A stretch of DNA of 64,000 nucleotides, from positions 2,666,001 through 2,730,000 of the forward strand of contig NC_086108.1 in NCBI RefSeq assembly GCF_963921235.1, in the 5' to 3' direction. Below the pieces are notes generated by a model, which saw only the letters and a program-made list of their open reading frames with translations, did no database searches and was not told the DNA's origin. Of this stretch, positions 9,501 through 47,090 are shown piece by piece. The first letter of the stretch is position 1; each line of letters starts with the position of its first letter. This DNA is from Mobula hypostoma. Lineage: Eukaryota. A program made the translations under genes and the position numbers.

Positions 9501-9574
9501 CATTTCTGTGCTCTGGATTTCCAATGCCTGCAGAATCTCCTATGTGTGCATACAATCAGTGACCACTTCACTAG

Positions 9575-9855
9575 GGACAGCATGGTAGGGCGGTTGTTAG
9601 CACAATACTATTTTAGCTTGGAGCGTCAAAGTTCGGAGTTCAGTTCCGAGTTATATGTTAGAAGTTTGTATGAGCATGTGGTTTCCCCCGCGTGCTCCAG
9701 TTTCCTCCCACATTCCGAAGGTGTACTGGTTGGTAGGTTAATTGGTCATTGTAAATTATCCAGTGAAAAGCTGTGTTAAGTAGGTGGGTTGCTGGGAGTT
9801 GTGGTTCATTAGGCCGTAAGGGCCTGTTTTGTGTTGTATCTTTGAATAAATAAAT
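9575..9855 (+). mobile_element. V-SINE/HE1-like SINE
   Basis: tRNA-like head, gtgctccagtttcctcccacattcc core, LINE-like tail gggcctgttttgtgttgtatct..aataaa. Confidence 0.7.
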
Positions 9856-9859
9856 ATCT

Positions 9860-10905
9860 AGTCAGTAACTCAATGCGTAAAAGTGTGCCAACTTGGTCAA
9901 GAGGTTCAGCTGTTGTTCAGAAATATCAGAAGGGGGAAAGAGAAGTGATCTAAGTGACTTTGAAAGTGGAATGTTTGTTGGTGGGCTGGTTTGAGTACCT
10001 CAGAAACTGCTGAATCTTGACACACATTAGTGATAGACTCGTAGAAAAGTACAGCATAGAAACTGAACATTCACCCATCTAGTCCGTGCCGAACCATTTA
10101 AACTGTCTACTCAAATTGACTGGCACTGGAACCATAACACTCCGTACCCCTACCATTCATGTACCTATCCTAACTTCTCTTAAACGTTGAAGTCGAGCTC
10201 GCACGCTCCACTTGTGCTGGCAGCCCATTCCACACTCTCACCACCCTCCGAGTGAAGAAGTTCCCCTCATGTTCTCATTAAAGATTTCCCTTTCACTTTT
10301 AACACATCCCTCTGGTTGTAGTCCCACCCCAACCTCTTATCCATACCCCTCTTCATTTTGTATACCTCTATAAAATCTCCTCTCAGTCTTCTATGTTCCA
10401 AGGAATAAAGTCCTAACCTATTCAATCTTTCCTTGTAACTCAGGTCCTCCAGACCCAGCAACATCATCGTAGATTTTCTCTGTACTCTTTCAACCTTATT
10501 CACATCTTTCCTGTGGGTAGGTGACCAGAGCTACACACAATCCTTTACATCAGGGCCTCAGCAACATCCTGTACAACTTCAACATAACATCCCGTCTCCT
10601 GTACTCTTTCTCGAGACTTTCCACAGAATGGTGTGAACAACAAAATTACATCCGTTGAGCGCCAGTTCTGTGGGTGAAAACAGCTTGTTAATTAGAAGGG
10701 TCAGAGACTGGGCAAATTGATTCCAGCTGACAGTAACTCAAATAACCACGTGTTACAACAGTGGTGTGCAGAAGAGCATCTCTGAACGCTCCACACATCA
10801 AATCTTGAAGTGGACGGACTACAGCAGCAGAAAACCGCACCAAACCTCACTCCTGTGGCCACTTTGTTGGAAATACTCCTGTGCCGAATTGAATGGACAT
10901 TGAGT
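9860..10905 (+). mobile_element. Tc1-like DNA transposon remnant interrupted by a CR1 fragment (10040-10605, minus)
   Basis: Degenerate transposase N-terminus GKRSDLSDFESGMFVG..SETA. Resumes after the CR1 with YNSGVQKSISE..LKWTDYSSRKP. Confidence 0.7.
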
Positions 10906-10984
10906 GTTGGTGTCAGAGTGAGGAAGGAGGGATAGGTGGTGACTGAAGGGTGTACATGGTTCTCACTCTGCCTTTCATTCTCAG

Positions 10985-11052
10985 ATAGGAAAACGATATT
11001 CTTTAATAGTCACGAAGTTTCGAAACCGGAATCTCGCTCTCACCTAACACAG
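10985..11052 (+). CDS. ITPK1: ITPK1-like coding exon (68 nt): DRKTIFFNSHEVSKPESRSHLTQ
   Basis: Acceptor ctttcattctcag and donor gtaagt. Motif IFFNSHxVSKPES. Phase-1 start and phase-0 end fit the neighbours. Confidence 0.95.
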
Positions 11053-11179
11053 GTAAGTGCACGAGGTGCAGGAGGGCAGGGTGTCAGATAAAAATGAATA
11101 AAACAGTGTCCTGATGCTCCACCCTCTGCTCACCAGCTTTCCCCTGGTTAATGTGAACCAAGCAGTGAGACCCTAACTG

Positions 11180-14100
11180 ACACACAAAATGCTGGAGGAA
11201 CTCAGCAGGCTAGGCACTGGGGCAGCATCTGTGGACGAGAACAAAAGACACCGAGACCCTCCACCAGGAATAGAACCAGAGATGAGAAGTCAGTGAGAAG
11301 GTGGGGGAGGGGAGGAGGAAGTACAAGGTGAGACTGGGAGAGGAGGAGGGGTGGTCAGAGTGAGAAGGTGGGGGAGGGGAGGAGGAAGTAGAAGGTGAGA
11401 CTGGGAGAGGGGGAGGGGTGAGGTCAGAGTGAGAAGGTGGGGGAGGGGAGGAGGAAGTACAAGGTGAGACTGGGAGAGGGGGAGGGGTGAAGTCAGAGTG
11501 AGAAGGTGGGGGAGGGGAGGAGTAAGTACAAGGTGAGACTGGGAGAGGAGGAGGGGTGGTCAGAGTGAGAAGGTGGGGGAGGGGAGGAGGAAGTACAAGG
11601 TGAGACTGGGAGAGGGGGAGGGGTGAGGTCAGAGTGAGAAGGTGGGGGAGGGGAGGAGGAAGTACAAGGTGAGACTGGGAGAGGGGGAGGGGTGAGGTCA
11701 GAGTGAGAAGGTGGGGGAGGGGAGGAGGAAGTAGAAGGTGAGACTGGGAGAGGGGGAGGGGTGAGGTCAGAGTGAGAAGGTGGGGGAGGGGAGGAGGAAG
11801 TAGAAGGTGAGACTGGGAGAGGGGGAGGGGTGAGGTCAGAGTGAGAAGGTGGGGGAGGGTAGGAGGAAGTACAAGGTGAGACTGGGAGAGGGGGAGGGGT
11901 GAGGTCAGAGTGAGAAGAGGAGAAGGAGGAAGTACAAGGTGAGACTGGGAGAGGGGGAGGGGAGGAGGAAGTACAAGGTGAGACTGGGAGAGGGGGAGGG
12001 GTGAGGTCAGAGTGAGAAGGTGGGGGAGGGGAGGAGGAAGTACAAGGTGAGACTGGGAGAGGGGGAGGGGTGAGGTCAGAGTGAGAAGGTGGGGGAGGGG
12101 AGGAGGAAGTACAAGGTGAGACTGGGAGAGGGGGAGGGGTGAGGTCAGAGTGAGAAGGTGGGGGAGGGGAGGAGGAAGTACAAGGTGAGACTGGGAGAGG
12201 GGGAGGGGTGAGGTCAGAGTGAGAAGGTGGGGGAGGGGAGGAGGAAGTACAAGGTGAGACTGGGAGAGGGGGAGGGGTGAGGTCAGAGTGAGAAGGTGGG
12301 GGAGGGGAGGAGGAAGTACAAGGTGAGACTGGGAGAGGGGGAGGGGTGAGGTCAGAGTGAGAAGGTGGGGGAGGGGAGGAGGAAGTACAAGGTGAGACTG
12401 GGAGAGGGGGAGGGGTGAGGTCAGAGTGAGAAGGTGGGGGAGGGGAGGAGGAAGTACAAGGTGAGACTGGGAGAGGGGGAGGGGTGAGGTCAGAGTGAGA
12501 AGGTGGGGGAGGGGAGGAGGAAGTACAAGGTGAGACTGGGAGAGGGGGAGGGGTGAGGTCAGAGTGAGAAGGTGGGGGAGGGGAGGAGGAAGTACAAGGT
12601 GAGACTGGGAGAGGGGAGGAGGGGTGAGGTCAGAGTGAGAAGGTGGGGGAGGGGAGGAGGAAGTACAAGGTGAGACTGGGAGAGGGGGAGGGGTGAGGTC
12701 AGAGTGAGAAGGTGGGGGAGGGGAGGAGTAAGTACAAGGTGAGACTGGGAGAGGAGGAGGGGTGGTCAGAGTGAGAAGGTGGGGGAGGGGAGGAGGAAGT
12801 ACAAGGTGAGACTGGGAGAGGGGGAGGGGTGAGGTCAGAGTGAGAAGGTGGGGGAGGGGAGGAGGAAGTACAAGGTGAGACTGGGAGAGGGGGAGGGGTG
12901 AGGTCAGAGTGAGAAGGTGGGGGAGGGGAGGAGGAAGTAGAAGGTGAGACTGGGAGAGGGGGAGGGGTGAGGTCAGAGTGAGAAGGTGGGGGAGGGTAGG
13001 AGGAAGTACAAGGTGAGACTGGGAGAGGGGGAGGGGTGAGGTCAGAGTGAGAAGGTGGGGGAGGGAAGGAGGAAGTACAAGGTGAGACTGGGAGAGGGGG
13101 AGGGGAGGAGGAAGTACAAGGTGAGACTGGGAGAGGGGGAGGGGTGAGGTCAGAGTGAGAAGGTGGGGGAGGGGAGGAGGAAGTAGAAGGTGAGACTGGG
13201 AGAGGGGGAGGGGTGAGGTCAGAGTGAGAAGGTGGGGGAGGGGAGGAGGAAGTACAAGGTGAGACTGGGAGAGGAGGAGGGGTGAGGTCAGAGTGAGAAG
13301 GTGGGGGAGGGGAGGAGGAAGTAGAAGGTGAGACTGGGAGAGGGGGAGGGGTGAGGTCGGAGTGAGAAGGTGGGGGAGGGGAGGAGGAAGTAGAAGGTGA
13401 GACTGGGAGAGGGGGAGGGGTGAGGTCGGAGTCAGTAGGTGGGGGAGGGGAGGAGGGAGTACAAGGTGAGACTGGGAGAGGGGGAGGGGTGAGGTCGGAG
13501 TGAGAAGGTGGGGGAGGGGAGGAGGGAGTACAAGGTGAGACCGGGAGAGGGGGAGGGGTGAGGTCAGAGTGAGAAGGTGGGGGAGGGGAGGAGGAAGTAG
13601 AAGGTGAGGCTGGGAGAGGGGGAGGGGTGAGGTCAGAGTGAGAAGGTGGGGGAGGGGAGGAGGAAGTAGAAGGTGAGACTGGGAGAGGGGGAGGGGTGAG
13701 GTCAGAGTGAGAAGGTGGGGGAGGGGAGGAGGAAGTAGAAGGTGAGACTGGGAGAGGGGGGTGAGGTCAGAGTGAGAAGGTGGGGAGGGGAGGAGGAAGT
13801 AGAAGGTGAGACTGGGAGAGGGGGAGGGGTGAGGTCAGAGTGAGAAGGTGGGGGAGGGGAGGAGGAAGTAGAAGGTGAGACTGGGAGAGGGGGAGGGGTG
13901 AGGTCAGAGTGAGAAGGTGGTGGAGGGGAGGAGGAAGTACAAGGTGAGACTGGGAGAGGGGGAGGGGTGAGGTCAGAGTGAGAAGGTGGAGGAGGGGAGG
14001 AGGAAGTACAAGGTGAGACTGGGAGAGGGGGAGGGGTGAGGTCAGAGTGAGAAGGTGGGGGAGGGAAGGAGGAAGTACAAGGTGAGACTGGGAGAGGGGG

Positions 14101-17100
14101 AGGGGTGAGGTCGGAGTGAGAAGGTGGGGGAGGGGAGGAGGAAGTAGAAGGTAAGACTGGGAGAGGAGGAGGGGTGAGGTCAGAGTGAGAAGGTGGGGGA
14201 GGGGAGGAGGAAGTAGAAGGTGAGACTGGGAGAGGGGGAGGGGTGAGGTCAGACTGAGAAGGTGGGGAGGGGAGGAGGAAGTAGAAGGTAAGACTGGGAG
14301 AGGGGGAGGGGTGAGGTCAGAGTGAGAAGGTGGGGGAGGGGAGGAGGAAGTAGAAGGTGAGACTGGGAGAGGGGGAGGGGTGAGGTCAAACTGAGAAGGT
14401 GGGGGAGGGGAGGAGGAAGTAGAAGGTGAGACTGGGAGAGGGGGAGGGGTGAGGTCAGAGTGAGAAGGTGGGGGAGGGGAGGAGGAAGTAGAAGGTGAGA
14501 CTGGGAGAGGGGGAGGGGTGAGGTCAGAGTGAGAAGGTGGTGGAGGGGAGGAGGAAGTACAAGGAGACTGGGTAAGGGGGAGGGGTGGTCAGAGTGAGAA
14601 GGTGGGGGAGGGGAGGAGGAAGTACAAGGTGAGACTGGGAGAGGGGGAGGGGTGAGGTCAGAGTGAGAAGGTGGGGGAGGGAAGGAGGAAGTACAAGGTG
14701 AGACTGGGAGAGGGGGAGGGGTGAGGTCGGAGTGAGAAGGTGGGGGAGGGAGGGAGGAAGTACAAGGTGAGACTGGGAGAGGGGGAGGGGTGAGGTCGGA
14801 GTGAGAAGGTGGGGGAGGGGAGGAGGAAGTACAAGGTGAGACTGGGAGAGGGGGAGGGGTGAGGTCAGAGTGAGAAGGTGGGGGAGGGGAGGAGGAAGTA
14901 CAAGGTGAGACTGGGAGAGGGGGAGGGGTGGTCAGAGTGACAAGGTGGGGGAGGGGAGGAGGAAGTACAAGGTGAGACTGGGGGAGGGGTGAGGTCAGAG
15001 TGAGAAGGTGGGGGAGGGGAGGAGGAAGTACAAGGTGAGACTGGGAGAGGGGGAGGGGTGAGGTCAGAGTGAGAAGGTGGGGGAGGGAAGGAGGAAGTAC
15101 AAGGTGAGACTGGGAGAGGGGGAGGGGTGAGGTCGGAGTGAGAAGGTGGGGGAGGGGAGGAGGAAGTACAAGGTGAGACTGGGAGAGGGGGAGGGGTGAG
15201 GTCAGAGTGAGAAGGTGGGGGAGGGGAGGAGGAAGTACAAGGTGAGACTGGGAGAGGGGGAGGGGTGAGGTCAGAGTGAGAAGGTGGGGGAGGGGAGGAG
15301 GAAGTAGAAGGTGAGACTGGGAGAGGGGGAGGGGTGAGGTCAGAGTGAGAAGGTGGTGGAGGGGAGGAGGAAGTACAAGGTGAGACTGGGTGAGGGGGAG
15401 GGGTGAGGTCAGAGTGAGAAGGTGGGGAGGGGAGGAGGAAGTACAAGGTGAGACTGGGAGAGGGGGAGGGGTGAGGTCAGAGTGAGAAGGTGGGGGAGGG
15501 GATGAGGAAGTACAAGGTGAGACTGGGAGAGGGGGAGGGGTGAGGTCAGAGTGAGAAGGTGGGGGAGGGGAGGAGGAAGTACAAGGTGAGACTGGGAGAG
15601 GGGGAGGGGTGAGGTCAGAGTGAGAAGGTGGGGGAGGGGAGGAGGAAGTACAAGGTGAGACTGGGAGAGGGGGAGGGGTGAGGTCAGAGTGAGAAGGTGG
15701 GGGAGGGGAGGAGGAAGTACAAGGTGAGACTGGGAGAGGGGGAGGGGTGAGGTCAGAGTGAGAAGGTGGGGGAGGGGAGGAGGAAGTACAAGGTGAGACT
15801 GGGAGAGGGGGAGGGGTGAGATCAGAGTGAGAAGGTGGGGGAGGGGAGGAGGAAGTACAAGGTGAGACTGGCAGAGGGGGAGGGGTGAGGTCAGAGTGAG
15901 AAGGTGGGGGAGGGAAGGAGGAAGTACAAGGTGAGACTGGGAGAGGGGGAGGGGTGAGGTCAGAGTGAGAAGGTGGGGGAGGGGAGGAGGAAGTACAAGG
16001 TGAGACTGGGAGAGGGGGAGGGGTGAGGTCAGAGTGAGAAGGTGGGGGAGGGGAGGAGGAAGTACAAGGTGAGACTGGGAGGGGGGAGGGGTGAGGTCAG
16101 AGTGAGAAGGTGGGGGAGGGAAGGAGGAAGTACAAGGTGAGACTGGGAGAGGGGGAGGGGTGAGGTCGGAGTGAGAAGGTGGGGGAGGGAAGGAGGAAGT
16201 ACAAGGTGAGACTGGGAGAGGGGGAGGGGTGAGGTCAGAGTGAGAAGGTGGGGGAGGGGAGGAGGAAGTACAAGGTGAGACTGGGAGAGGGGGAGGGGTG
16301 AGGTCAGAGTGAGAAGGTGGGGGAGGGGAGGAGGAAGTAGAAGGTGAGACTGGGAGAGGGGGAGGGGTGAGGTCAGAGTGAGAAGGTGGGGGAGGGGAGG
16401 AGGAAGTAGAAGGTGAGACTGGGAGAGGGGGAGGGGTGAGGTCAGAGTGAGAAGGTGGGGGAGGGGAGGAGGGGAAGGTGAGACTGGGAGAGGGGGGTGA
16501 GGTCAGAGTGAGAAGGTGGGGAGGGGAGGAGGAAGTAGAAGGTGAGACTGGGAGAGGGGGAGGGGTGAGGTCAGAGTGAGAAGGTGGGGGAGGGGAGGAG
16601 GAAGTACAAGGTGAGACTGGGAGAGGGGGAGGGGTGAGGTCAGAGTGAGAAGGTGGGGGAGGGGAGGAGGAAGTAGAAGGTGAGACTGGGAGAGGGGGAG
16701 GGGTGAGGTCAGAGTGAGAAGGTGGGGGAGGGGAGGAGGAAGTAGAAGGTGAGACTGGGAGAGGGGGAGGGGTGAGGTCAGAGTGAGAAGGTGGGGGAGG
16801 GGAGGAGGAAGTAGAAGGTGAGACTGGGAGAGGGGGGTGAGGTCAGAGTGAGAAGGTGGGGAGGGGAGGAGGAAGTAGAAGGTGAGACTGGGAGAGGGGG
16901 AGGGGTGAGGTCAGAGTGAGAAGGTGGGGGAGGGGAGGAGGAAGTAGAAGGTGAGACTGGGAGAGGGGGAGGGGTGAGGTCAGAGTGAGAAGGTGGGGAG
17001 GGGAGGAGGAAGTAGAAGGTGAGACTGGGAGAGGGGGAGGGGTGAGGTCAGAGTGAGAAGGTGGGGGAGGGGAGGAGGATGTAGAAGGTGAGACTGGGAG

Positions 17101-20100
17101 AGGGGGAGGGGTGAGGTCAGAGTGAGAAGGTGGTGGAGGGGAGGAGGAAGTACAAGGTGAGACTGGGTGAGGGGGAGGGGTGGTCAGAGTGAGAAGGTGG
17201 GGGAGGGGAGGAGGAAGTACAAGGTGAGACTGGGAGAGGGGGAGGGGTGAGGTCAGAGTGAGAAGGTGGGGGAGGGGATGAGGAAGTACAAGGTGAGACT
17301 GGGAGAGGGGGAGGGGTGAGGTCGGAGTGAGAAGGTGGGGGAGGGGAGGAGGAAGTACAAGGTGAGACTGGGAGAGGGGGAGGGGTGAGGTCAGAGTGAG
17401 AAGGTGGGGGAGGGGAGGAGGAAGTACAAGGTGAGACTGGGAGAGGGGGAGGGGTGAGGTCAGAGTGAGAAGGTGGGGGAGGGGAGGAGGAAGTACAAGG
17501 TGAGACTGGGAGAGGGGGAGGGGTGAGGTCGGAGTGAGAAGGTGGGGGAGGGGAGGAGGAAGTACAAGGTGAGACTGGGAGAGGGGGAGGGGTGAGGTCA
17601 GAGTGAGAAGGTGGGGGAGGGGAGGAGGAAGTACAAGGTGAGACTGGGAGAGGGGGAGGGGTGAGGTCAGAGTGAGAAGGTGGGGGAGGGGAGGAGGAAG
17701 TACAAGGTGAGACTGGGAGAGGGGAGGAGGGGTGAAGTCAGAGTGAGAAGGTGGGGGAGGGAAGGAGGAAGTACAAGGTGAGACTGGGAGAGGGGGAGGG
17801 GTGAGGTCAGAGTGAGAAGGTGGGGGAGGGGAGGAGGAAGTACAAGGTGAGACTGGGAGAGGGGGAGGGGTGAGGTCAGAGTGAGAAGGTGGGGGAGGGG
17901 AGGAGGAAGTACAAGGTGAGACTGGGAGAGGGGGAGGGGTGAGGTCAGAGTGAGAAGGTGGGGGAGGGGAGGAGGAAGTACAAGGTGAGACTGGGAGAGG
18001 GGGAGGGGTGAGGTCAGAGTGAGAAGGTGGGGGAGGGGAGGAGGAAGTAGAAGGTGAGACTGGGAGAGGGGGAGGGGTGAGGTCAGAGTGAGAAGGTGGG
18101 GGAGGGGAGGAGGAAGTACAAGGTGAGACTGGGTGAGGGGAGGGGTGGTCAGAGTGAGAAGGTGGGGGAGGGGTGAGGTCAGAGTGAGAAGGTGGGGAGG
18201 GGAGGAGGAAGTACAAGGTGAGACTGGGTGAGGGGAGGAGGGGTGAGGTCTGAGTGAGAAGGTGGGGGAGGGGAGGAGGAAGTACAAGGTGAGACTGGGA
18301 GAGGGGGAGTGGTGAGGTAAGAGTGAGAAGGGGGGGAGGGGAGGAGGAAGTACAAGGTGAGTCTGGGAGAGGGGGAGGGGTGAGGTCAGAGTGAGACTGG
18401 GAGAGGGGAGGGGTGAGGTCAGGGAGAAGGTGGGGAGGGGAGGAGGAAGTACAAGGTGAGACTGGGAGAGGGGGAGGGGTGAGGTCAGAGTGAGAAGGTG
18501 GGGGAGGGGAGAAGGAAGTACAAGGTGAGACTGGGAGAGGGGGAGGGGTGAGGTCAGAGTGAGAAGGTGGGGGAGGGGATGAGGAAGTACAAGGTGAGAC
18601 TGGGAGAGGGGGAGGGGTGAGGTCAGAGTGAGAAGGTGGTGGAGGGGAGGAGGAAGTACAAGGTGAGACTGGGAGAGGGGGAGGGGTGAGGTCAGAGTGA
18701 GAAGGTGGGGAGGGAGAGGAGAAGGTGAGACTGGGAGAGGGGGAGGGGTGAGGTCAGAGTGAGAAGGTGGTGAGAGGGGAGGGGTGGTCAGAGTGAGAAG
18801 GTGGGGAGGGGAGGGAAGAGGGGGAGGGGTGAGGTCAGAGTGAGAAGGTGGGGGAGGGGAGGAGGAAGTACAAGGTGAGACTGGGAGAGGGGGAGGGGTG
18901 AGGTCAGAGTGAGAAGGTGGGGGAGGGGAGGAGGAAGTAGAAGGTGAGACTGGGAGAGGGGGAGGGGTGAGGTCAGAGTGAGAAGGTGGGGGAGGGGAGG
19001 AGGAAGTAGAAGGTGAGACTGGGAGAGGGGGAGGGGTGAGGTCAGAGTGAGAAGGTGGGGGAGGGGAGGAGGAAGTAGAAGGTGAGACTGGGAGAGGGGG
19101 AGGGGTGAGGTCAGAGTGAGAAGGTGGGGGAGGGGAGGAGGAAGTAGAAGGTGAGACTGGGAGAGGGGGAGGGGTGAGGTCAGAGTGAGAAGGTGGGGGA
19201 GGGGAGGAGGAAGTAGAAGGTGAGACTGGGAGAGGGGGAGGGGTGAGGTCAGAGTGAGAAGGTGGGGGAGGGGAGGAGGAAGTAGAAGGTGAGACTGGGA
19301 GAGGGGGAGGGGTGAGGTCAGAGTGAGAAGGTGGGGGAGGGGAGGAGGAAGTAGAAGGTGAGACTGGGAGAGGGGGAGGGGTGAGGTCAGAGTGAGAAGG
19401 TGGGGGAGGGGAGGAGGAAGTAGAAGGTGAGACTGGGAGAGGGGGGGTGAGGTCAGAGTGAGAAGGTGGGGAGGGGAGGAGGAAGTAGAAGGTGAGACTG
19501 GGAGAGGGGGAGGGGTGAGGTCAGAGTGAGAAGGTGGGGGAGGGGAGGAGGAAGTAGAAGGTGAGACTGGGAGAGGGGGAGGGGTGAGGTCAGAGTGAGA
19601 AGGTGGGGGAGGGGAGGAGGAAGTAGAAGGTGAGACTGGGAGAGGGGGAGGGGTGAGGTCAGAGTGAGAAGGTGGGGGAGGGGAGGAGGAAGTAGAAGGT
19701 GAGACTGGGAGAGGGGGAGGGGTGAGGTCAGAGTGAGAAGGTGGGGGAGGGGAGGAGGAAGTACAAGGTGAGACTGGGAGAGGGGGTGGGGTGAGGTCAG
19801 AGTGAGAAGGTGGGGGAGGGGAGGAGGAAGTACAAGGTGAGACTGGGAGAGGGGGAGGGGTGAGGTCAGAGTGAGAAGGTGGGGGAGGGGAGGAGGAAGT
19901 ACAAGGTGAGACTGGGAGAGGGGGAGGGGTGAGGTCAGAGTGAGAAGGTGGGGGAGGGGAGGAGGAAGTACAAGGTGAGACTGGGAGAGGGGGAGGGGTG
20001 AGGTCAGAGTGAGAAGGTGGGGGAGGGGAGGAGGAAGTACAAGGTGAGACTGGGAGAGGGGGAGGGGTGAGGTCAGAGTGAGAAGGTGGGGGAGGGGAGG

Positions 20101-23100
20101 AGGAAGTACAAGGTGAGACTGGGAGAGGGGGAGGGGTGAGGTCAGAGTGAGAAGGTGGGGGAGGGGAGGAGGAAGTAAAGGTGAGACTGGGAGAGGGGGA
20201 GGGGTGAGGTCAGAGTGAGAAGGTGGGGAGGGGAGGAGGAAGAAGTAGAAGGTGAGACTGGGAGAGGGGGAGGGGTGAGGTCAGAGTGAGAAGGTGGGGG
20301 AGGGGAGGAGGATGTAGAAGGTGAGACTGGGAGAGGGGGAGGTGTGAGGTCAGAGTGAGAAGGTGGTGGAGGGGAGGAGGAAGTACAAGGTGAGACTGGG
20401 TGAGGGGGAGGGGTGGTCAGAGTGAGAAGGTGGGGGAGGGGTGAGGTCAGAGTGAGAAGGTGGGGAGGGGAGGAGGAAGTACAAGGTGAGACTGGGTGAG
20501 GGGAGGAGGGGTGAGGTCAGAGTGAGAAGGTGGGGGAGGGGAGGAGGAAGTAGAAGGTGAGACTGGGAGAGGGGGAGGGGTGAGGTCAGAGTGAGAAGGT
20601 GGGGGAGGGGAGGAGGAAGTACAAGGTGAGACTGGGAGAGGGGGAGGGGTGAGGTCAGAGTGAGAAGGTGGGGGAGGGGAGGAGGAAGTAGAAGGTGAGA
20701 CTGGGAGAGGGGGAGGGGTGAGGTCAGAGTGAGAAGGTGGGGGAGGGGAGGAGGAAGTAGAAGGTGAGACTGGGAGACGGGGAGGGGTGAGGTCAGAGTG
20801 AGAAGGTGGGGGAGGGGAGGAGGAAGTAGAAGGTGAGACTGGGAGAGGGGGTGAGGTCAGAGTGAGAAGGTGGGGAGGGGAGGAGGAAGTAGAAGGTGAG
20901 ACTGGGAGAGGGGGAGGGGTGAGGTCAGAGTGAGAAGGTGGGGGAGGGGAGGAGAAAGTAGAAGGTGAGACTGGGAGAGGGGGAGGGGTGAGGTCAGAGT
21001 GAGAAGGTGGGGGAGGGGAGGAGGAAGTAGAAGGTGAGACTGGGAGAGGGGGAGGGGTGAGGTCAGAGTGAGAAGGTGGGGGAGGGGAGGAGGAAGTAGA
21101 AGGTGAGACTGGGAGAGGGGGAGGGGTGAGGTCAGAGTGAGAAGGTGGGGGAGGGGAGGAGGAAGTAGAAGGTGAGACTGGGAGAGGGGGGTGAGGTCAG
21201 AGTGAGAAGGTGGGGGAGGGGAGGAGGAAGTAGAAGGTGAGACTGGGAGAGGGGGAGGGGTGAGGTCAGAGTGAGAAGGTGGGGGATGGGAGGAGGAAGT
21301 AGAAGGTGAGACTGGGAGAGGGGGAGGGGTGAGGTCAGAGTGAGAAGGTGGGGGAGGGGAGGAGGAAGTAGAAGGTGAGAGTGGGAGAGGGGGAGGGGTG
21401 AGGTCAGAGTGAGAAGGTGGGGGAGGGGAGGAGGATGTAGAAGGTGAGACTGGGAGAGGGGGAGGGGTGAGGTCAGAGTGAGAAGGTGGTGGAGGGGAGG
21501 AGGAAGTACAAGGTGAGACTGGGTGAGGGGGAGGGGTGGTCAGAGTGAGAAGGTGGGGGAGGGGAGGAGGAAGTACAAGGTGAGACTGGGAGAGGGGGAG
21601 GGGTGAGGTCAGAGTGAGAAGGTGGGGGAGGGGATGAGGAAGTACAAGGTGAGACTGGGAGAGGGGGAGGGGTGAGGTCAGAGTGAGAAGGTGGGGGAGG
21701 GGAGGAGGAAGTACAAGGTGAGACTGGGAGAGGGGGAGGGGTGAGGTCAGAGTGAGAAGGTGGGGGAGGGGAGGAGGAAGTACAAGGTGAGACTGGGAGA
21801 GGGGGAGGGGTGAGGTCAGAGTGAGAAGGTGGGGGAGGGGAGGAGGAAGTACAAGGTGAGACTGGGAGAGGGGGAGGGGTGAGGTCGGAGTGAGAAGGTG
21901 GGGGAGGGGAGGAGGAAGTACAAGGTGAGACTGGGAGAGGGGGAGGGGTGAGGTCAGAGTGAGAAGGTGGGGGAGGGGAGGAGGAAGTACAAGGTGAGAC
22001 TGGGAGAGGGGGAGGGGTGAGGTCAGAGTGAGAAGGTGGGGGAGGGGAGGAGGAAGTACAAGGTGAGACTGGGAGAGGGGGAGGGGTGAGGTCAGAGTAA
22101 GAAGGTGGGGGAGGGGAGGAAGAAGTACAAGGTGAGACTGGGAGAGGGGAGGAGGGGTGAAGTCAGAGTGAGAAGGTGGGGGAGGGGAAGGAGGAAGTAC
22201 AAGGTGAGACTGGGAGAGGGGGAGGGGTGAGGTCAGAGTGAGAAGGTGGGGGAGGGGAGGAGGAAGTACAAGGTGAGACTGGGAGAGGGGGAGGGGTGAG
22301 GTCAGAGTGAGAAGGTGGGGGAGGGGAGGAGGAAGTAGAAGGTGAGACTGGGAGAGGGGGAGGGGTGAGGTCAGAGTGAGAAGGTGGGGGAGGGGAGGAG
22401 GAAGTACAAGGTGAGACTGGGTGAGGGGGAGGGGTGGTCAGAGTGAGAAGGTGGGGGAGGGGTGAGGTCAGAGTGAGAAGGTGGGGGAGGGGAGGAGGAA
22501 GTACAAGGTGAGACTGGGTGAGGGGAGGAGGGGTGAGGTCTGAGTGAGAAGGTGGGGGAGCGGAGGAGGAAGTACAAGGTGAGACTGGGAGAGGGAGAGG
22601 GGTGAGGTCAGAGTGAGAAGGTGGGGGAGGGGATGAGGAAGTACAAGGTGAGACTGGGAGAGGGGGCGGGGTGAGGTCAGAGTGAGAAGGTGGGGGAGGG
22701 GAGGAGGAAGTACAAGGTGAGACTGGGAGAGGGGGAGGGGTGAGGTCAGAGTGAGAAGGTGGGGGAGGGGAGGAGGAAGTAGAAGGTGAGACTGGGAGAG
22801 GGGGAGGGGTGAGGTCAGAGTGAGAAGGTGGGGGAGGGGAGGAGGAAGTACAAGGTGAGACTGGGAGAGGGGGAGGGGTGAGGTCGGAGTGAGAAGGTGG
22901 GGGAGGGGAGGAGGAAGTACAAGGTGAGACTGGGAGAGGGGGAGGGGTGAGGTCAGAGTGAGAAGGTGGGGGAGGGGAGGAGGAAGTACAAGGTGAGACT
23001 GGGTGAGGGGAGGAGGGGTGAGGTCAGAGTGAGAAGGTGGGGGAGGGGAGGAGGAAGTACAAGGTGAGACTGGGAGAGGGGGAGGGGTGAGGTCAGAGTG

Positions 23101-24150
23101 AGAAGGTGGGGGAGGGGAGCAGGAAGTACAAGGTGAGACTGGGAGAGGGGGAGGGGTGAGGTCAGAGTGAGAAGGTGGGGGAGGGGAGCAGGAAGTACAA
23201 GGTGAGACTGGGAGAGGGGGAGGGGTGAGGTCGGAGTGAGAAGGTGGGGGAGGGGAGGAGGAAGTACAAGGTGAGACTGGGAGAGGGGGAGGGGTGAGGT
23301 CAGAGTGAGAAGGTGGGGGAGGGGAGGAGGAAGTACAAGGTGAGACTGGGTGAGGGGAGGAGGGGTGAGGTCAGAGTGAGAAGGTGGGGGAGTGGAGGAG
23401 GAAGTACAAGGTGAGACTGGAAGAGGGGGAGGGGTGAGGTCAGAGTGAGAAGGTGGGGGAGGGGAGGAGGAAGTACAAGGTGAGACTGGGTGAGGGGAGG
23501 AGGGGTGAGGTCAGAGTGAGAAGGTGGGGGAGGGGAGGAGGAAGTACAAGGTGAGACTGGGAGAGGGGGAGGGGTGAGGTCAGAGTGAGAAGGTGGGGGA
23601 GGGAAGGAGGAAGTACAAGGTGAGACTGGAGAGGGGGAGGGGTGAGGTCAGAGTGAGAAGGTGGGGGAGTGGAGGAGGAAGTACAAGGTGAGACTGGAAG
23701 AGGGGGAGGGGTGAGGTCAGAGTGAGAAGGTGGGGGAGGGGAGCAGGAAGTACAAGGTGAGACTGGGAGACTGGGAGAGGGAGGGGTGAAATAAAGAGCT
23801 GGGAAGTTGACTGGTGAAAGAGATAACGGGCTGGAGACGGGGGAATCTGATAGGAGAGGTCAGAAGGTCATGGAAGAAAAGGAAGGAGAGGAGCACCAGG
23901 GGAAGGCGATGGGCAGGTAAGGAGATAAGGTGAGAGAGGGAAACAGGAATGATGAAGGAGAGGAGATGGGGGGCAATTAATAGAAGTTCATGGCATCAGG
24001 TTGGAGGCTACACAGACGTACAAGGTGTTGCTCCTCCCACCCGAGTGTGGCCTCGTCACGGCAGTAGAGGAGGCCGTGGACTGACGTATGGGAATGGGAA
24101 GTGGAATTGAAATGGGTAGCCCCTGGGAAATCCTGCTTTTTGTGGTGGAC
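11180..24150 (-). mobile_element. Penelope-like fragment split by a 12.5-kb internal expansion (unique parts 11180-11290 and 23770-24150)
   Basis: Left flank cacacaaaatgctggaggaactcagcagg; right flank agagctgggaagttgactggtgaaag..catcaggttggaggcta. Collinear with the unexpanded copy at 39440-39970. Confidence 0.88.
11290..23785 (+). repeat. G/purine-rich satellite, ~180 x 69 bp, in an ITPK1 intron
   Basis: Unit gtcagagtgagaaggtgggggaggggaggaggaagta(c/g)aaggtgagactgggagagggggaggggtgag; period checked at 12006 and 12075. Copy number is length/69. Confidence 0.98.
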
Positions 24151-24554
24151 AGAGCCTACCTAGGAGAACTTAGCAACACTCTGATCACTTAAGTGTTTTG
24201 TTTTAACTGTGTTCTTGTAAAACTTGTATCTAATTTGTGAACGCTGCTTATCTGATGATCTGTGCTTGTTATACTGCAAGTAAGATTCTCACTGCACACC
24301 AGTGCGAGTGGGAATGTACATTTGCACAAATCATTGAGAGAGGGTGTGGTGGCAGGCAGAGAGGGGACGCTGGTGGAGAGAGAGGGGAGGGTCCTGGAAG
24401 GGGAAGATAGAGGAATGGTCCTGACTGCGGGAGGGGGTGGTGTTGCCTGGCAGGGGGAGAGAGCGGGGAGTGACCTGGAAGGGGGGAGAGAGAGAGGCAA
24501 GAGGAGTTGGTCCTGGCAGGGGGCGAGGGAGAGAAGGAGAGAGAAAAAGAATAG

Positions 24555-25410
24555 ACAAAAATCCAAGGTGGGGACTGCAGCAAATGTTACACCTGGCAAA
24601 CTGGGAGAAAACTATCCGCAAGGATCCATGAACATCAACTGCAAAGCGAAACAACCAACTCTCCCTCGTCTCTACCCAGTGATCATGTAGATAGTCAGAG
24701 GCTTTTTCCAAGGGCTGAAATGGCTAGAACGAGAGGACACAGGTTTAAGGTGCTGGGGAGTAGATACAGAGGAGATGTCAGGGGTAAGTTTTTTACGCAG
24801 AGAGTGGTGAGTGCGTTGAATGGGCTGCTGGTGACGGTGGTGGAGGCGGATACGACAGGGTCTTTTAAGAGACTCCTGGACAGGTACATGGAGCTTAGAA
24901 AAATAGAGGGCTATGGGTAACCCTAGGTAATTTCTATGGTAGGGACATGTTCGGCACAGCATTGTGGGCCGAAGGGCCTGTATTGTGCTGTAGGCTTTCT
25001 GCGTTCTACCCATGAAGATTGAGAGGGGCACAAATTCAACCTGCCGTCAGTGAAAGTCATGGCACACGCAAACACAGGACATGCAAGAGAACTCCTATAC
25101 GTGTGATTTTCCGCAAACACGTAGACCTCGATCCTGGGCAAAATCCAGACCAGAACGCATGGAGCTTGCCACGTAAACAATTAGCAACAAGATTTCCTCC
25201 CCACAGCACAACTGAGTTTTTCTACTGAATCAGCTGATCGAAAAGTATATCAAGGCCAAGCATTCAGAGGACACACCACAATCAACAGTGCACGGATGAC
25301 GTCTCCTCATATGGGACGAAACATTTACAAGTAAATCGCCAGGATCGGAGAACAACTCAACCCAAGCATCAACCACCTGAGCTACACACGTTCACACCTT
25401 CCAAATTATT
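24555..25410 (+). mobile_element. Second Penelope-like lineage: GIY-YIG endonuclease remnant plus terminus, interrupted by CR1
   Basis: KIQGGDCSKCYTWQTGRKLSARIHEHQL ... STHED*EGHKFN..KVMAHANTGHARELL..KHVDLDP. The terminus is shared with 53460-53555. Confidence 0.75.
24679..25004 (+). mobile_element. 5'-truncated CR1 insertion with 8-bp TSD
   Basis: RTRGHRFKV..FFTQRVV; tctaccca at 24671-24678 and 25005-25012. Confidence 0.88.
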
Positions 25411-25454
25411 TCCATCTTATTGTCTGGCTGGGCACCAACAACCTATAGAGGAGA

Positions 25455-26418
25455 TGTAGATGCAGCACTGGGGCTCCACAGGGGACTGTCTTGTCTCCCT
25501 TTCTCTTCACCATTTACACCTCGGACTTCAACTACTGCACAGAGTCTTGTCATCTTCAGAAGTTTTCTGATGACTTTACCATAGTTGGATGCATCAGCAA
25601 GGGAGATGAGGCTGAGTACAGGGCTACGGTAGGAAACTTTGTCACATGGTGTGAGCAGAATTATCTGCAGCTTAATGTGAAAAAGACTAAGGAGCTGGTG
25701 GTAGACCTGAGGAGAGCTAAGGTACCGGTGACCCCTGTTTCCATCCAGGGGGTCAGTGTGGATATGGTGGAGGGTTACAAATACCTGGGGATACAAATTG
25801 ACAATAAACTGGACTGGTCTGTCTACACTGAGGCTGTCTACAAGAAGGGTCAGAGCCGTCTCTATTTCCTGAGGAGACTGAGGTCCTTTAACATCTGCCG
25901 GACGATGCTGAGGATGTTCTACGGGTCTGTGGTGGCCAGTGCTATCATGTTTGCTGTTGTGTGCTGGGGCAGCAGGCTGAGGGTAGCAGACACCGACAGA
26001 ATCAACAAACTCATTCATAAGGCCAGTGATGTTGTGGGGATGGAACTGGACTCTGTCACGGTGGTGTCTGGAAAGAGGATGCTGTCCAAGTTGCATGCCA
26101 TCTTGGACAATGTCTCCCATCCACTACATAATGTACTGGTTGGGCACAGGAGTACATTCAGCCAGAGACTCATTCCACCGAGATGCAACACAGAGCATCA
26201 TAGGAAGTCATTCCTGCCTGTGGCCATCAAACTTCACAACTCCTCCCTTGGAGGGTCAGACACCCTGAGCCAATAGGCTGGTCCTGGACTTATTTCCTGG
26301 CATAATTTACATATTACTATTTAACTATTTATGGTTTTATTACTATTTAATTATTTATGGTGCAACTGTAACGAAAACCAATTTCCCCCGGGATCAATAA
26401 AGTATGACTATGACTATA
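25455..26418 (+). mobile_element. Rex/Babar-type LINE, 5'-truncated, RT C-terminal ORF open (25491-26276)
   Basis: GAPQGTVLSPFLFTIYTSD, KFSDD, LNVKKTKELVVD, KGQSRLYFLRRL, SFLPVAI; tail aataaaagtatgactatgactat. Confidence 0.93.
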
Positions 26419-26696
26419 ATTGTGTGGTCATTACCAGGGAGAAGGTAAAGTCATTACTTCCTGTTTTAGTCAGTAACCAGATGTGGTTAAGGAGGATTTA
26501 GTTTGGTTACCACTAAACCCTTTTCTACAGCTGTTATGAATGTTTAATTTGATGGGCAGGCAATTTCCCGTTGAGCTCATTTAACAGCAGTGTTATGTTG
26601 TGAGCAGATTTAATAGGCTGGAGCAGGAAAGGCCATTCAGCCCCTCAAGTTTGTTCCTTCCATTAATGTGATCGAGGCTGCTTTGTGACTCCAGAT

Positions 26697-26768
26697 CAGG
26701 AGTTCCCAACCTGGGGTTCATGGACCCTTTGCGTAATAGTACAGCATAAACAAGGTTGGGAATCCCCA
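26697..26768. mobile_element. 72-bp hAT (Charlie-like) MITE
   Basis: TIRs caggagttcccaacct / aggttgggaatcccca; 8-bp TSD ctccagat at 26689-26696 and 26769-26776. Confidence 0.8.
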
Positions 26769-27149
26769 CTCCAGATGCACGGCTTTCCAACATAAATCTT
26801 CAGCGATGTGGTTAGCACCGCACTTTACATCACCAGTTCTGCCGTTCCATTGTGGCAGGTTTATTTTCCTTTTCAGCTGCCTTCATGTAACCTTTGACAC
26901 CCTGACTGATCCAGAACTAATCAACCCCCACTTTAAATACACCCAGTGGCTATACCTGCAATGAATTCCACAAACTCGCCACCATCTGACTAAAGCGGTT
27001 CTTCCTCATCCTAGCTGTAAAGGGACGTCCCTCTACAGTGCAAGACTTAAAAATCATTACAAGTTACAAAAATGAATAGTGTGAAAGGAGAACAAGGAAG
27101 TAGTGTTCCTGGGCAATTTGTTTGTGACTGCTGAGATGTTCTTTGCTTG

Positions 27150-27535
27150 GCAGGGTGGAGATATGTCTCTACCAAGGGAGGTGTGAGGTGCTCCGTCCCT
27201 CCACTAGCCTGCAGGACATCCTTGGGCAAGGTGTAGCACCTGCTTAGCCCCCCACCCCCACTACCCCCTCAATCAGGGTCAGCGAAGCCACAGGATCAGG
27301 TGGTGGATGATCACATGAGCAGCCGGTGCAGATCACAAGTCCTGGTTATGTGACCACTGACATCAGGCAGACAATCCCCGAAGAGTATTGATAATGGCTG
27401 GGGTCACCGGTCTTGTAAAGACACTGCCCAGAGGAAGTCAATGGCAAACCACTTCTGTGGGAAAATTTGCCAAGAACCATCAGGGTCGTGGAAAGACCAT
27501 GAGTGCCGATGTCACACAACAAACCTCATAATGAA
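27150..27535 (+). mobile_element. Non-autonomous SINE-like repeat with RTE-type tail; other copies at 29950-30305, 35285-35640, 37975-38330(-), 38570-38680(-), 49990-50295
   Basis: Shared ~380-bp sequence tctctaccaaaggaggtg..gagcagccggtgcagatcacaagtcctggttatg..ggcaaaccacttctgtagaaaaatttgccaag, with a (tga)n tail in some copies. Confidence 0.75.
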
Positions 27536-27959
27536 TTAAGATTCTCTTACTCTTCACTATTTTGATACTGGCAGATACAACATCATAAAGTGCACCTTTG
27601 TTCTGTCCTTTCTCCTGGTTACCGTGGCTCAGTAGCAAAGAGTCATTGCCTCGTCTCAATTCTAAAGGGACACCCTTCTATTCTGAGGCTGTGTCCTCTG
27701 GTCCTAGATTCTCCCACTATAAGTAATGTCCTCCTTACATCCATTCTATCTAGTAGAGATCTCCCCCACCCCCAATTCTTCTAAACTCCAGCGAGTACAA
27801 GCCCAGAGTTAATCAAACACTTCTCATTGTTGACCCTTTGATTCCCCGGATCATTCTGGTAAACCTGTACAGCAGGTTATATGGTGGTACAATATAGAAA
27901 TTGGTCACCTACCCACATATTCTTGTTGTCCATCTACACCACTCCTATACTTTTCTGCA

Positions 27960-28375
27960 CCCTGGTGACTTGAGTCTCTGCCAGTTAGGGCAGCAGTGAA
28001 GATCCCCCATCTCTGGTGGTGTTCAGGGCTTCCTTCATCGTGTCAGTAGCTTCCTCTCAGTTTTCACTACTGTCAGTCATCCAAGTCCCGGGTGGAGACT
28101 CAGGAATACCATCACACTCAGATGCAGAAGAATTCTTCACTGCTGTTTCTGTAACAGTTTGTTTTACCATTCTGGGTTGTTAGCCCTGAGCTTGAATCCC
28201 CAAACCTGGTGGATTGGTGGACCACTCTTAGTCTGGCCTCTAACCTTTGACCTATTTGGCATAGGCGACCCTAACAAGAGCCAAAGCATAAAGCCCAGAC
28301 TCCAGCCGCCATAGCTCTCTGAGTAACTGAGGCACGCGAGCCTCCGAACCCTACGACAAAGTTGTGGTCTTCTCG
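27960..28375 (-). mobile_element. Probable RTE-derived non-autonomous element
   Basis: cctttgacctatttggcataggcgaccctaacaagagc..catagctctc resembles RTE 5' regions in reverse; recognition only. Confidence 0.4.
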
Positions 28376-28534
28376 AGTGCTTGTTTTAAATGTGCATCGC
28401 TGCCTCTGTCACACTTGGGTTTTGTGTTGCAGATACAGCCTGTTGTGTATTTAATAGCTGAGTAATCTTATATATTGTTTGAGTAAGCATTCTTCATTTA
28501 AATAATTCATCATGGGCTGTATGTATAAATCCAT

Positions 28535-29000
28535 GAATTGCAGCAGGGCGAGAGCAGCTGACGCGACGAAGATCGATGAGCTCGTCGGGAAGGCTGTTTC
28601 TGTTCTGGGGGTGGAACTGGATCCCCTGGTGGTTGTGTCGGAGAGGAGGATCCTGCAGAAACTATGGAGCTTTATGGACAATCCCTCTCACCCCCTCCAT
28701 GACAGACCGGACAAACAGAGGAGCACCTTTAGTAACGGGCTAATTCCTCCGAGGTTCACCACTGAACGTCACGGGAGATCCTTCCTCCCTGTGGCTATGA
28801 GCCTCTACAACTCCTCCTCCTCAAGTATACAATGATATGGTTTCATTGCACATCTGTATTTTGTACTATTACTTTTTAATGCCACATTTTGTATTCTTTT
28901 TCATACCTTGATGCTTATATTTCGTATTTTAAAGTATATATTTCTGACTGAGCAGCCTTGCAACGATAATTTCCTTCGGGATAAATAAAGTTTTATCTTA
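28535..29000 (+). mobile_element. Rex/Babar-type LINE 3' fragment
   Basis: MDNPSHPLH..TERHGRSFLPVAMSLYN; tail gggataaataaagttttatctta. Confidence 0.85.
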
Positions 29001-29039
29001 TAACATTACCGTGTGACCTGTGTGTACCTCGCTTAAAGT

Positions 29040-29550
29040 AAGAGGAACAACACCTTGTATTCCGTCTGGGTAGCCTCCAACCTGATGGCATGAACATTGG
29101 CTTCTCTAACTTCTGCTATTGCCCCACCTCCCCCTCGTACCCCATCCGTTATTTATTTATATACACACACTCTTTCTCTCTCTCTCTCCTTTTTCTTCCT
29201 CTGTCCCTCTGACTATACCCCTTGCCCATCCTCTGGGTTCCTCCCCCACCTTTCTTCCTGAGCCTCCTGTCCCATGATCCTCTCATATCCCCTTTTGCCA
29301 ATCACCTGTCCAGCTCTTGGCTCCATCCCTCCCCCTCCTGTCTTCTCCTATCATTTCAGATCTCCCCCTCCCCCTCCCACTTTCAAATCTCTTACTATCT
29401 CTTCTTTCAGTTAGTCCTGACGAAGGGTCTCGGCCTGAAACATCAACTGTACCTCTTCCTAGAGATGCTGCCTGGCCTGCTGCGTTCACCAGCAACTTTG
29501 ATGTGTGTTGCTTGAATTTTCAGCATCTGCAGAATTCCTTGTGTTTACGA
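29040..29550 (+). mobile_element. Penelope-like 3'/pLTR fragment (young subfamily)
   Basis: EEQHLVFRLGSLQPDGMNI ORF end. 29195-29545 is a close inverted copy of 47090-47447. Confidence 0.88.
29413..29449 (+). ncRNA. Minimal type I hammerhead-ribozyme-like motif (variant)
   Basis: agtc-CTGACGA-a-gggtctcggcct-GAAA-cATC-aact: core and stem II present, stem III has a mismatch. Confidence 0.55.
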
Positions 29551-29693
29551 AGTTAGACTCACATTTCAGACACCAGTGTCTCTCTTCGAATTGGTTAAAT
29601 GTTTTGAAATTACCCGCCTTCTGATTCCTCTTTAAACCTCCTGGCTCTTTCCCTAAACCAATGTGTGTCTTTGTCTTTGCCCTGTTCCTACAG

Positions 29694-29856
29694 AGGGACG
29701 AACAGGAGAACCACCCAAGTGGACCATCGGATGGGATTATTCAATCCATCAGCCGATGCCTGCAGATGTCCCTGGGATTGTCACTGTTTGGGGTGGATGT
29801 CATTGTCGACAGCAGATCTGGCAAGCTGGCAGTGATCGATATCAATGCATTTCCAG
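29694..29856 (+). CDS. ITPK1: ITPK1-like coding exon (163 nt): RDEQENHPSGPSDGIIQSISRCLQMSLGLSLFGVDVIVDSRSGKLAVIDINAFP
   Basis: Acceptor ctgttcctacag and donor gttagt. Catalytic Mg-binding motifs LFGxD and IDINAFPG. Confidence 0.96.
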
Positions 29857-38889: not shown

Positions 38890-40620
38890 TCACGCACAAA
38901 ATGCTGGAGGAACTCAGCAGGTCAGGCAACATCCATGGAAATGAATAAACAGTTGACGTTTCGGCCTGAGACCCTTCTTTAGGAGTGGAGAGGAAGAGGG
39001 AAGATGCCAGAATAAAAAGGATGGGAAAAGGGGAAGGTGGTAGCTAGAAGGTGACGGGTGAAGCCAGGTGGGTGGGAAAGGTCAAGGATTGGAGAGGAAG
39101 GAATCTGATGGGAGAGGAGAGTGGACCATGGGAGAAAGGGAAGGGGGAGGTGATAGGCAGGTGAGAAGAGGTAAGAGGCCAGTGAGGAATAGAAGAGGAG
39201 GTGAGGGGGAAGAGGGGATTTTACCGGAAGGAGAAATTGATATTCATGCCATCAGGTTGGGGACTACCCAGGTGGAATATAAGGTGTCGCTCCTCCACCT
39301 TGACGGTGGCCTGATTTTAGTACAAGAGAAAGCCATGGACCAACAGCCTTCCTCTTTCCACAGCTAATTTCTTCACAAACCATTTTATTTTTGCTCTTCT
39401 GAACCACGAGGAGATCTGCAGATGCTGGAATTTCAGAGCAATACACACAAACGCTAGGGGAGCTCAGCAGGTCAGGAAGCATCTGAGGAAAAGAGTAAGC
39501 AGTCGATGTTTTGGGCTGAGACCCTTCATCAGGACTGGAAAGGAAGGGGAGGTCAGGGTAAGAAGGTGGAGGGAGGGGAGGAAGAAGTACAAGGTGGCAG
39601 GTGATAGGTGAAGCTGGGAGAGTGTGAGGGGGTGAAGAGCTGGGAAGTGGATTGGTGAAAGAGTTGAAGGGCTGGAGATGGGAATCTGACAGGAGAGGAC
39701 AGAAGACCATGGAAGAAAGGGAAGGGAGAGGAGCACCAGAGGGAGGTGATGGGTACGTAAGGAGATGAGGTGGGAGAGGGAAACAGAAATGGGGGATGGT
39801 GAAGGAGAGGGAGTGGGGCATTTACCATAAGTTCGAGAAATTGATGTTCATGCCATTAGGCTGGAGGCTACCCAGATGGAATATAAAGTGTTGCTCCTTC
39901 AAACTGAGTGTGGCCTCATCGGAACGGGAGAGGAGGCCATGGACTAACATGTCAGAATGGGAGTGGAAAGTGGAGGCCTCGGCCCTCAAATTTACTTAGT
40001 CCATTTCCGACACTGCCCTCTCCTTTCTCAATCTCTCTGTCCCCAAGACAGTCTATCTTTTATAAACGCACTGATCTCACAGCTACCTTGACTATACCTC
40101 TTCCCACCATGTCACTTTTCTCAGTTACTCTGTGTCTGCTGCATCTGCTCTCAGGGTGAGGCTTTTCATTCTAGACTGAAGGAGATGTCCTCCTTCTTCA
40201 AAGAAAGGGGCTTCCCTTCCACCGCCATCAGTGCTGCCCTCACCCGCATCTCTTCCATTTCGCGCACGTCTACCCTCACCCCATCTTCCCGCTGCCCCAC
40301 TGGGGATAGGTTTCCTTGTCCTCAGCTACCAACTCACTAGGCTACGTATCCAGCACATAATACTGCGCACTTCCGCAATCTCCAACAGGATCCCAGCACC
40401 AAGTACATTTTTCCCTCCCCCCCCACCCCACCCCACTTTCTGCTTTCCACAGGGATTGCTCCCCACACGACATCTCACAGCCCTCCCTGCTGATCTCCCT
40501 CCTGGTGCTCATCCTTGCAAGTGGAGCAAGTGCCACACCTGCCCCCACCCCACCTCCCTCATTCAGGGCCCTTCCGGGTGAGGCTGTCTGCGGGAAGACC
40601 GATCTCGGGGTTGTATTTCA
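38890..40620. mobile_element. Cluster of Penelope-like fragments: 38890-39345(-), 39405-39972(-), inverted partner 39975-40620(+)
   Basis: pLTR termini plus an RT remnant (ALKFT*SISDTALSFL..KEMSSFFKERGFP). Confidence 0.85.
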
Positions 40621-47062: not shown

Positions 47063-47090
47063 TCCCAGTCATCAAGAAAGGGAAGGCCAG

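Follow-up and report, generated by a model that had tools for sequence, protein, structure and literature searches.

The window analysed here, 64,000 nucleotides of the Mobula hypostoma assembly (contig NC_086108.1, positions 2,666,001 to 2,730,000), carries five exons of an ITPK1-like gene (3324-3364, 6095-6260, 10985-11052, 29694-29856 and one starting at 43129), which give a stop-free translation across GT-AG introns. A Pfam ITPK1 domain match falls in one of the exons, and the best database matches of a host-gene exon are ray ITPK1-like proteins, at 98% for Hemitrygon akajei, matches that point to a stingray-like batoid. Since the spliced translation aligns gap-free to the Hemitrygon akajei ITPK1-like protein (215 of 223 residues identical), the intron of interest is delimited as 11053-29693, and the host gene is intact. 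This intron holds a large tandem array embedded in the remnant of a Penelope-like element. The features discussed below are as follows.

1735-2954: array of a 61-bp unit in 20 copies, collinear inside a dispersed repeat that has unexpanded copies in the window
8510-9160: array of a 95-bp unit in 7 copies, likewise collinear inside a dispersed repeat with unexpanded in-window copies
10985..11052, + strand: ITPK1-like exon 5' of the array-bearing intron (translation, protein alignment, cover by contigs of run X5)
11053..29693, + strand: GT-AG intron of the ITPK1-like gene, 18,641 bp (exon structure, protein alignment)
11177..11291, - strand: 3' terminus of the host Penelope-like copy (blastn to other termini, nine-copy alignment)
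11292..23784, + strand (transcribed, non-template, G-rich): 69-bp minisatellite array of ~182 units (TRF and monomer decomposition)
23785..23982, - strand: remainder of the host copy's 3' UTR, collinear with the 39.4-kb copy (blastn)
23983..24154, - strand: C-terminal end of a decayed GIY-YIG endonuclease ORF, with the 5' truncation point (tblastn)
29694..29856, + strand: next ITPK1-like exon (exon structure, protein alignment)
39440..39968, - strand: unexpanded paralogous Penelope-like 3' fragment, adjoining an inverted copy at 39982-40572 on the + strand (blastn, alignment, tree)

TRF places the array at 11292-23784 with a period of 69, 181.9 copies and 91% matches, its length being that of the assembly, and cutting at a 12-base anchor yields 180 intervals, 137 of which measure exactly 69 bp. 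These values agree with the roughly 180 units of 69 bp reported in the initial annotation, and the share of the intron taken up by the array, 67.0%, agrees with the two-thirds given there. Sorted by sequence, the 180 units form 74 types; a single base separates the two most frequent ones (47 and 34 copies), and the mean pairwise difference among the 137 array units of 69 bp is 2.1%. The + strand of the array is 58% G and 86% purine, with a GC skew of about +0.87 and a mean G4Hunter score of 1.53, against -0.03 for 24200-58400.

Both edges of the array lie in one repeat family, of which the window contains at least eight other copies. The left flank (11177-11330) and the right flank (23755-24154) match other in-window element copies in the same order and orientation (blastn, alignment); the collinearity with Penelope copies on which the original proposal depended is thus present on both sides, and the element does resume after the array at 23781, as quoted there. 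In the right-hand UTR block 149 of 186 aligned columns are identical to the 39.4-kb copy, and a tblastn search with residues 384-443 of a related protein, P0007, places them inside the host copy, at 24153-23983 of the - strand (67% identity, E 1e-16). Because P0007 maps to the right flank on that strand, the host is an antisense, 5'-truncated copy running from 24154 to 11177, with the array within its 3' UTR. This copy is decayed. It keeps only the last 60 codons of the ORF and the UTR, and its terminus carries an 8-bp insertion and an 11-bp deletion that destroys the hammerhead core; the core, allowing at most one mismatch, occurs in seven of the eight paralogous termini tested and is absent from the host terminus. 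Comparison of 11140-11190 with 24140-24200 revealed no target-site duplication reaching 5 bp.

A reverse transcriptase (RT) piece at 33583-33789 gave 14 matches among 25 candidates, with ray proteins at 58-78%, and the RT fragment of one copy matches uncharacterised Hypanus and Mobula proteins. When three relatives were scanned with Pfam, P0005 showed RVT_1 at E 1e-4 and P0007 showed GIY-YIG at E 8e-4, both below the Pfam cut-off, and P0009 gave no match. At the family level an RT is followed by a C-terminal GIY-YIG endonuclease, as expected of EN+ Penelope-like elements. The 5' truncation and adjoining inverted copies expected of this group are likewise seen: the host is truncated at 24154, and inverted pairs are formed by 33.0-33.6 kb (-) with 33.6-35.0 kb (+) and by 39.4-40.0 kb (-) with 40.0-40.6 kb (+). 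A CX2-5CxxC linker is present in P0007 and P0009, both relatives checked, and is readable at ~40.5 kb; the 5' truncation of the host copy lies downstream of this linker, which is known from the relatives. According to the available portion of PMC8557442, Neptune and Nematis have such a linker and Penelope/Poseidon does not; absence of the linker before the endonuclease defines the latter clade, from which the present family accordingly differs. Placed by this one motif, a Zn-finger linker, the host family would be an EN+ Penelope-like element of the Neptune/Nematis type. With such elements, as described in that portion of PMC8557442, it shares, across the window family and its Hypanus and Mobula relatives, an RT followed by a C-terminal GIY-YIG domain with two cysteines inside the motif, the linker, 5' truncation, neighbouring truncated copies in inverted orientation and, close to the end, a candidate hammerhead-like core; unlike full elements of this type, the host copy is reduced to the short coding remnant and UTR described above. 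At gathering score Rfam gave 0 matches of any kind across the window and, at E up to 10 over 24000-58000, eight sub-threshold matches, none of them a hammerhead. The element could not be named by running Pfam on its decayed pieces from the window, the endonuclease piece P0001 had no match among 17 candidates in a word-based search, a PDB sequence search with the RT piece had no matches, and a representative search gave 352 unnamed matches at E up to 0.001, P0009 among them.

The homology of the unit to a segment of the 39.5-kb copy, noted at the outset, holds: against 39400-39975 the 69-bp unit scores 92, whereas 2000 mononucleotide-shuffled versions of it never exceeded 59.5. Its local score is 93 to this copy against 37-55.5 to the six other paralogues aligned, and among the matches listed the best one beyond the array is the 39.5-kb paralogue, followed by composition-level matches to a 25-bp array. 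The interval 39552-39640 is therefore the closest stand-in that the window offers for the amplified segment, but it is a cousin and not the progenitor that the initial annotation took it for. The collapsed host is 72% identical to the 39.5-kb copy (356 of 495 columns; 76% over 435 columns by blastn), no closer than it is to the 33.0-kb copy (285 of 397, 72%), and 70% identical to the 34.9-kb copy. In a nine-row unrooted tree the host does not pair with the 39.5-kb copy as its sister; ~0.38 substitutions per site separate the two, and the branch between them has a support of 83/91, unstarred. On these grounds of identity, distance and position the 39.5-kb copy was rejected as the progenitor. 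The internal piece said to be missing from the unit, ~12 bp, also needs correction, as relative to this copy 14 bp net are missing (a 15-nt gap and a 1-nt gap). A 7-nt spacer is missing from the unit, and its loss is derived because all eight paralogues aligned retain it; the other seven bases vary among subfamilies. None of the eight in-window paralogues carries the unit duplication. Each unit owes a donor-like AAG/GTGAGA to the deletion, which makes 180 such sites, with no sign of use.

The junctions between units preserve a record of how the array was closed and reworked. The array is entered as ...GAGAA-GTCAG and left as ...GGGGTGAA-ATAAAG. By exact match, 163 internal junctions read TGAGGTCRG, 11 carry a 2-bp deletion and three read TGAAGTCAG; the three junctions that read GGGGTGAA-GTCAG are an exact fusion of the right exit with the left entry. 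The 163 junctions carry G where the rare fusion form has A, and the rare form, GGGGTGAA-GTCAG, is probably ancestral. Variants are distributed along the array in a strongly non-random manner. For the C/G variant at unit position 68, like neighbours number 141 among 175 units, against 95.8 +/- 5.9 in 20000 permutations, and rare variants shared in order at least five units apart number 23 pairs, against a null mean of 2.1 and a maximum of 9 in 300 permutations. The longest exact match between distant parts of the array is 400 bp. Blocked and ordered variant patterns of this kind are left by slippage, unequal exchange and conversion.

Public sequencing runs allow the locus to be placed in time. 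Twenty-three runs match 9560-11330, and four of the 23 were aligned to 10400-11360 at 80% likeness, all as contigs; runs of organisms D, E and F, with small shares, were left out of the comparison. Run X1, from organism A and possibly from the assembly sample, has a contig identical to the window over 10803-11204, and among the matches listed a joint leads from 11353 back to 11292 through AGGTCAG. In run X8 (organism B) the same joint passes, among the matches listed, through AAGTCAG, the proposed ancestral form; the unique flank 10928-11158 is not covered in X8, whose tandem junction may stem from another locus. The form of the junction thus differs between organisms A and B among the matches listed, the locus in B being a candidate orthologue. 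In run X11 (organism C) a contig spans 10914-11209 with 31 differences and one gap, extending past the exon to include the element's first 33 bases; no tandem joint appears among the matches listed for X11 or X5. Since the contig of organism C carries the end of the insertion at the same site, the element probably inserted before a split of ~10% intronic divergence. Taken together, these comparisons argue for an old insertion and for an array that would be older than one species and still undergoing homogenisation. The initial annotation had spoken of a transition from transposable element to satellite caught in the act. The in-situ origin in that description stands, whereas "caught in the act" is overstated, given a decayed host, a terminus at the same site in organism C and the same junction in organism B.

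The reading that best accommodates these data, to which we assign a probability of roughly 0.78, is that of a neutral, candidate single-locus minisatellite derived from a transposable element and grown in place. Its units run head to tail, correspond to a sub-segment of the element, and are bordered on both sides by the collinear remainder of that element, the arrangement that defines TE-derived minisatellites. An origin in situ from one Penelope-like segment is supported because the flanks are collinear, a GIY-YIG remnant lies at 24153-23983 and the match of the unit to the family exceeds chance. No function is indicated for the array. A Penelope-like element inserted antisense into the intron of the ITPK1-like gene, 5'-truncated to its endonuclease tail and 3' UTR, and decayed. 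A piece of 7-14 bp between short AGGTG repeats would have been lost, and the 69-bp purine-rich UTR segment would have been copied head to tail, a shared GAA being the probable site. Microhomology was rejected as proof of mechanism, the shared 3-nt GAA being at chance level (P ~0.145); for the 5-nt AGGTG the corresponding expectation is P ~0.028. Growth and turnover of the array evidently proceeded by local steps and by duplication of multi-unit blocks, as would be expected of slippage, unequal exchange or conversion, and an A-to-G change at the junction may have swept through most units in the source species. More speculatively, the G-rich non-template strand might favour instability by forming an R-loop or quadruplex during transcription; a canonical four-tract quadruplex motif is absent from the 69-bp unit.

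Several other histories could be imagined. The tandem nucleus, that is the deletion together with a duplication of two or three units, may have arisen in a source element and spread by retrotransposition, so that the array would be an expanded member of a multi-locus family and no one-off event at this site. The same breakpoint in organism B, at a locus of undemonstrated orthology, would fit such a history, as would contig depth over 11324-11356 compared with the unique flank (2655 against 5.9 in X1 and 8266 against 8.6 in X11, depth not being copy number). As this depth is hundreds-fold above the flank, close relatives of the 11324-11356 segment exist elsewhere; at 80% likeness, however, it takes in ordinary dispersed copies. 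Together with the decay of the host copy, its missing hammerhead core and the lack of the duplication in all eight in-window paralogues, this leaves the carried nucleus an unlikely, though the strongest, competitor. Far less probable is an RNA-templated tandem, whether a non-LTR retrozyme or the product of a rolling circle or of repeated template jumps at insertion. Tandem arrays of Penelope-like pseudo-LTRs have been described, as far as the available part of that preprint goes (bioRxiv 10.64898/2026.07.22.740005), and the unit comes from that general region. The hammerhead core is nevertheless absent from both strands of the array, exactly or with one mismatch, and Rfam finds none; with no type I hammerhead per unit, identification of the array as a non-LTR retrozyme is largely refuted. 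The element-sense 69-bp unit has no predicted structure (0 kcal/mol), and folding of the hammerhead regions and the unit, five sequences in all, gave no significant z-score. The units are, moreover, 2% apart, whereas the host differs by ~10% from the flank of organism C, and their variants are nested in blocks; low divergence and nesting together point to turnover at the DNA level long after insertion.

The array might also be much shorter in the animal and have been inflated by assembly of a G-rich repeat. In X1 the tandem-junction contig reaches a depth of 162 against 5.9 on the flank, a ratio below that expected of 180 units, an argument limited by the splitting of contigs by variant and by the fact that depth is not copy number. 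The 74 unit types among 180 speak against inflation, as do rare variants that recur in ordered blocks with further divergence, and the 400-bp ceiling on distant exact matches, which shows that no long stretch was pasted in twice. Contigs of X1, which may be the assembly sample, also contain both the tandem junction and the left flank as far as 11204. Inflation is on balance very improbable. Equally hard to credit as the retrozyme is the notion that an effect on the host gene has maintained or moulded the array, which adds G-runs and 180 donor-like sites to the pre-mRNA. There are indeed 180 matches to AG/GT[AG]AG in the array, 175 of which read AAG/GTGAGA and agree with the consensus at 8 of 9 positions, whereas no site in the 39.5-kb segment agrees at more than 7. 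The true donor, ~275 nt upstream, nonetheless fits the consensus at all 9 positions, pyrimidines amount to 14% of the array, which so offers no acceptor tract, and the protein is conserved gap-free, with no sign of selection. Contigs of X5, whose status as RNA is a guess, cover the exon at 10985-11052 and have no cover of 11060-11158 beside it, which says nothing on the use of cryptic donors.

A minisatellite grown in place from a transposable element has well-described counterparts. In the human genome 7,276 TE-derived minisatellites, 23% of all minisatellites, are attributed to local duplication, most clusters being single-locus, according to the available part of Ahmed and Liang 2012 (PMC3389668). 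In both settings a sub-segment of one TE copy was duplicated and expanded locally; the human Alu-derived cases average 2.3-2.4 units (PMC3389668, same portion), compared with ~182 here, and the present source is a Penelope-like element, a class that the accessible text of bioRxiv 10.64898/2026.07.22.740005 gives as absent from mammals. Closer in scale are the SINE-derived satellites (sSats) of squamates, whose arrays can comprise hundreds of units (Vassetzky, Kosushkin and Ryskov 2023, PMC10702118, as far as available). They resemble the array in having units of ~70-290 nt taken from part of a retroelement, in numbers from few to hundreds per locus, in end monomers that carry the ends of the element and in alternating subvariants; they differ in their SINE source and many loci, against a Penelope-like 3' UTR source known here from one locus. 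Penelope-like pseudo-LTR retrozymes likewise draw their unit from a non-coding end region, but each of their units carries a type I hammerhead (bioRxiv 10.64898/2026.07.22.740005, accessible text), unlike the present unit, which has none and whose host core is deleted. In the part of PMC9659126 available, a review of many cases, the word Penelope does not occur, and among the literature listed no report turned up of a shark or ray minisatellite derived from a Penelope UTR; preprint supplements (repeat libraries, chondrichthyan retrozyme tables) may bear on the point. TE-derived minisatellites being common and well documented, the array is a clean new instance of an already known process.

The array has company within the window. 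The 61-bp and 95-bp arrays both sit inside LINE-like repeats, the former in a C-terminal coding stretch of a LINE that is presumably CR1; a tblastn comparison of the 95-bp array with the LINE ORF at 25449-26276 gave no matches. In sharks and rays, tandem repeats are enriched on short chromosomes and toward chromosome ends (PMC10620051; 10.1101/2025.06.08.657570, both as far as available). A broader reading, which we offer tentatively and regard as possible but doubtful, is that this chromosome region acts as a nursery in which several classes of retroelement expand in place, strand-skewed G-rich segments growing largest, and that the locus records the life history of one such expansion. If true, it would comprise an old shared insertion, one duplication, an ancestral junction in a related species and a later sweep of the derived junction, with 180 new donor-like sites inside a working intron, and concerted evolution at a single locus and its trigger would become directly measurable across ray genomes.

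A single case of this kind matters little in itself. Its value is that of a clean, datable specimen: the parent element is preserved at both ends, what appears to be the ancestral junction is still legible, and insertion and junction alike seem to be present in related species. Since four tandem arrays make up 31% of the window, expansion of elements in situ may add to the growth of introns in rays.

Tandem expansion from transposable-element sequence recurs in the window, and the 61-bp array expanded within the C-terminal coding stretch of a LINE copy. Arrays and Penelope-like copies noted besides the main array are listed here.

1735-2954: 61-bp array of 20 units, in a LINE copy's C-terminal coding stretch
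8510-9160: 95-bp array of 7 units, inside a LINE-like repeat other than that of the 61-bp array
29035-29512 and 47118-47445: two Penelope-like copies of a younger subfamily
33008-34965: Penelope-like insertion, inverted pair; short - strand 3' fragment adjoining an inverted + strand copy
39440-40572: Penelope-like insertion, inverted pair of the same arrangement
58734-64000: 25-bp C-rich array, continuing past the window end

The flanks of the 61-bp array, whose units diverge by 5.4%, are collinear with two unexpanded copies in the same window (51.2-51.6 and 41.1-41.3 kb), and the 95-bp array is likewise collinear with unexpanded copies at 54.3-54.5, 52.2-52.5 and 58.1-58.3 kb. For the 25-bp C-rich array (G4Hunter score -1.54), no source sequence was found within the 64-kb window. 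In the main array (11292-23784), the deletion in the unit gave rise to 180 donor-like sites, which lie on the intron's transcribed strand.

Beyond the arrays, a long, near-perfect hairpin at 44992-45080, scoring below threshold against miRNA models, is probably an inverted-repeat element. Decayed coding-like sequence at ~44400-49800 has, by eye, the look of a putative LTR retrotransposon; both a LINE and a copy of a Penelope-like element interrupt it.

The two younger-subfamily Penelope-like copies share 92% identity, and both carry an exact hammerhead core pattern. At the host element's 3' terminus (11180-11216), summed contig depth, which is not equivalent to copy number, reaches millions in three DNA or unlabelled sequencing runs and ~470,000 in X5, a public run guessed to be RNA, compared with 6-9 over unique flanks where these are covered. 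This depth points to a very abundant Penelope-like family.
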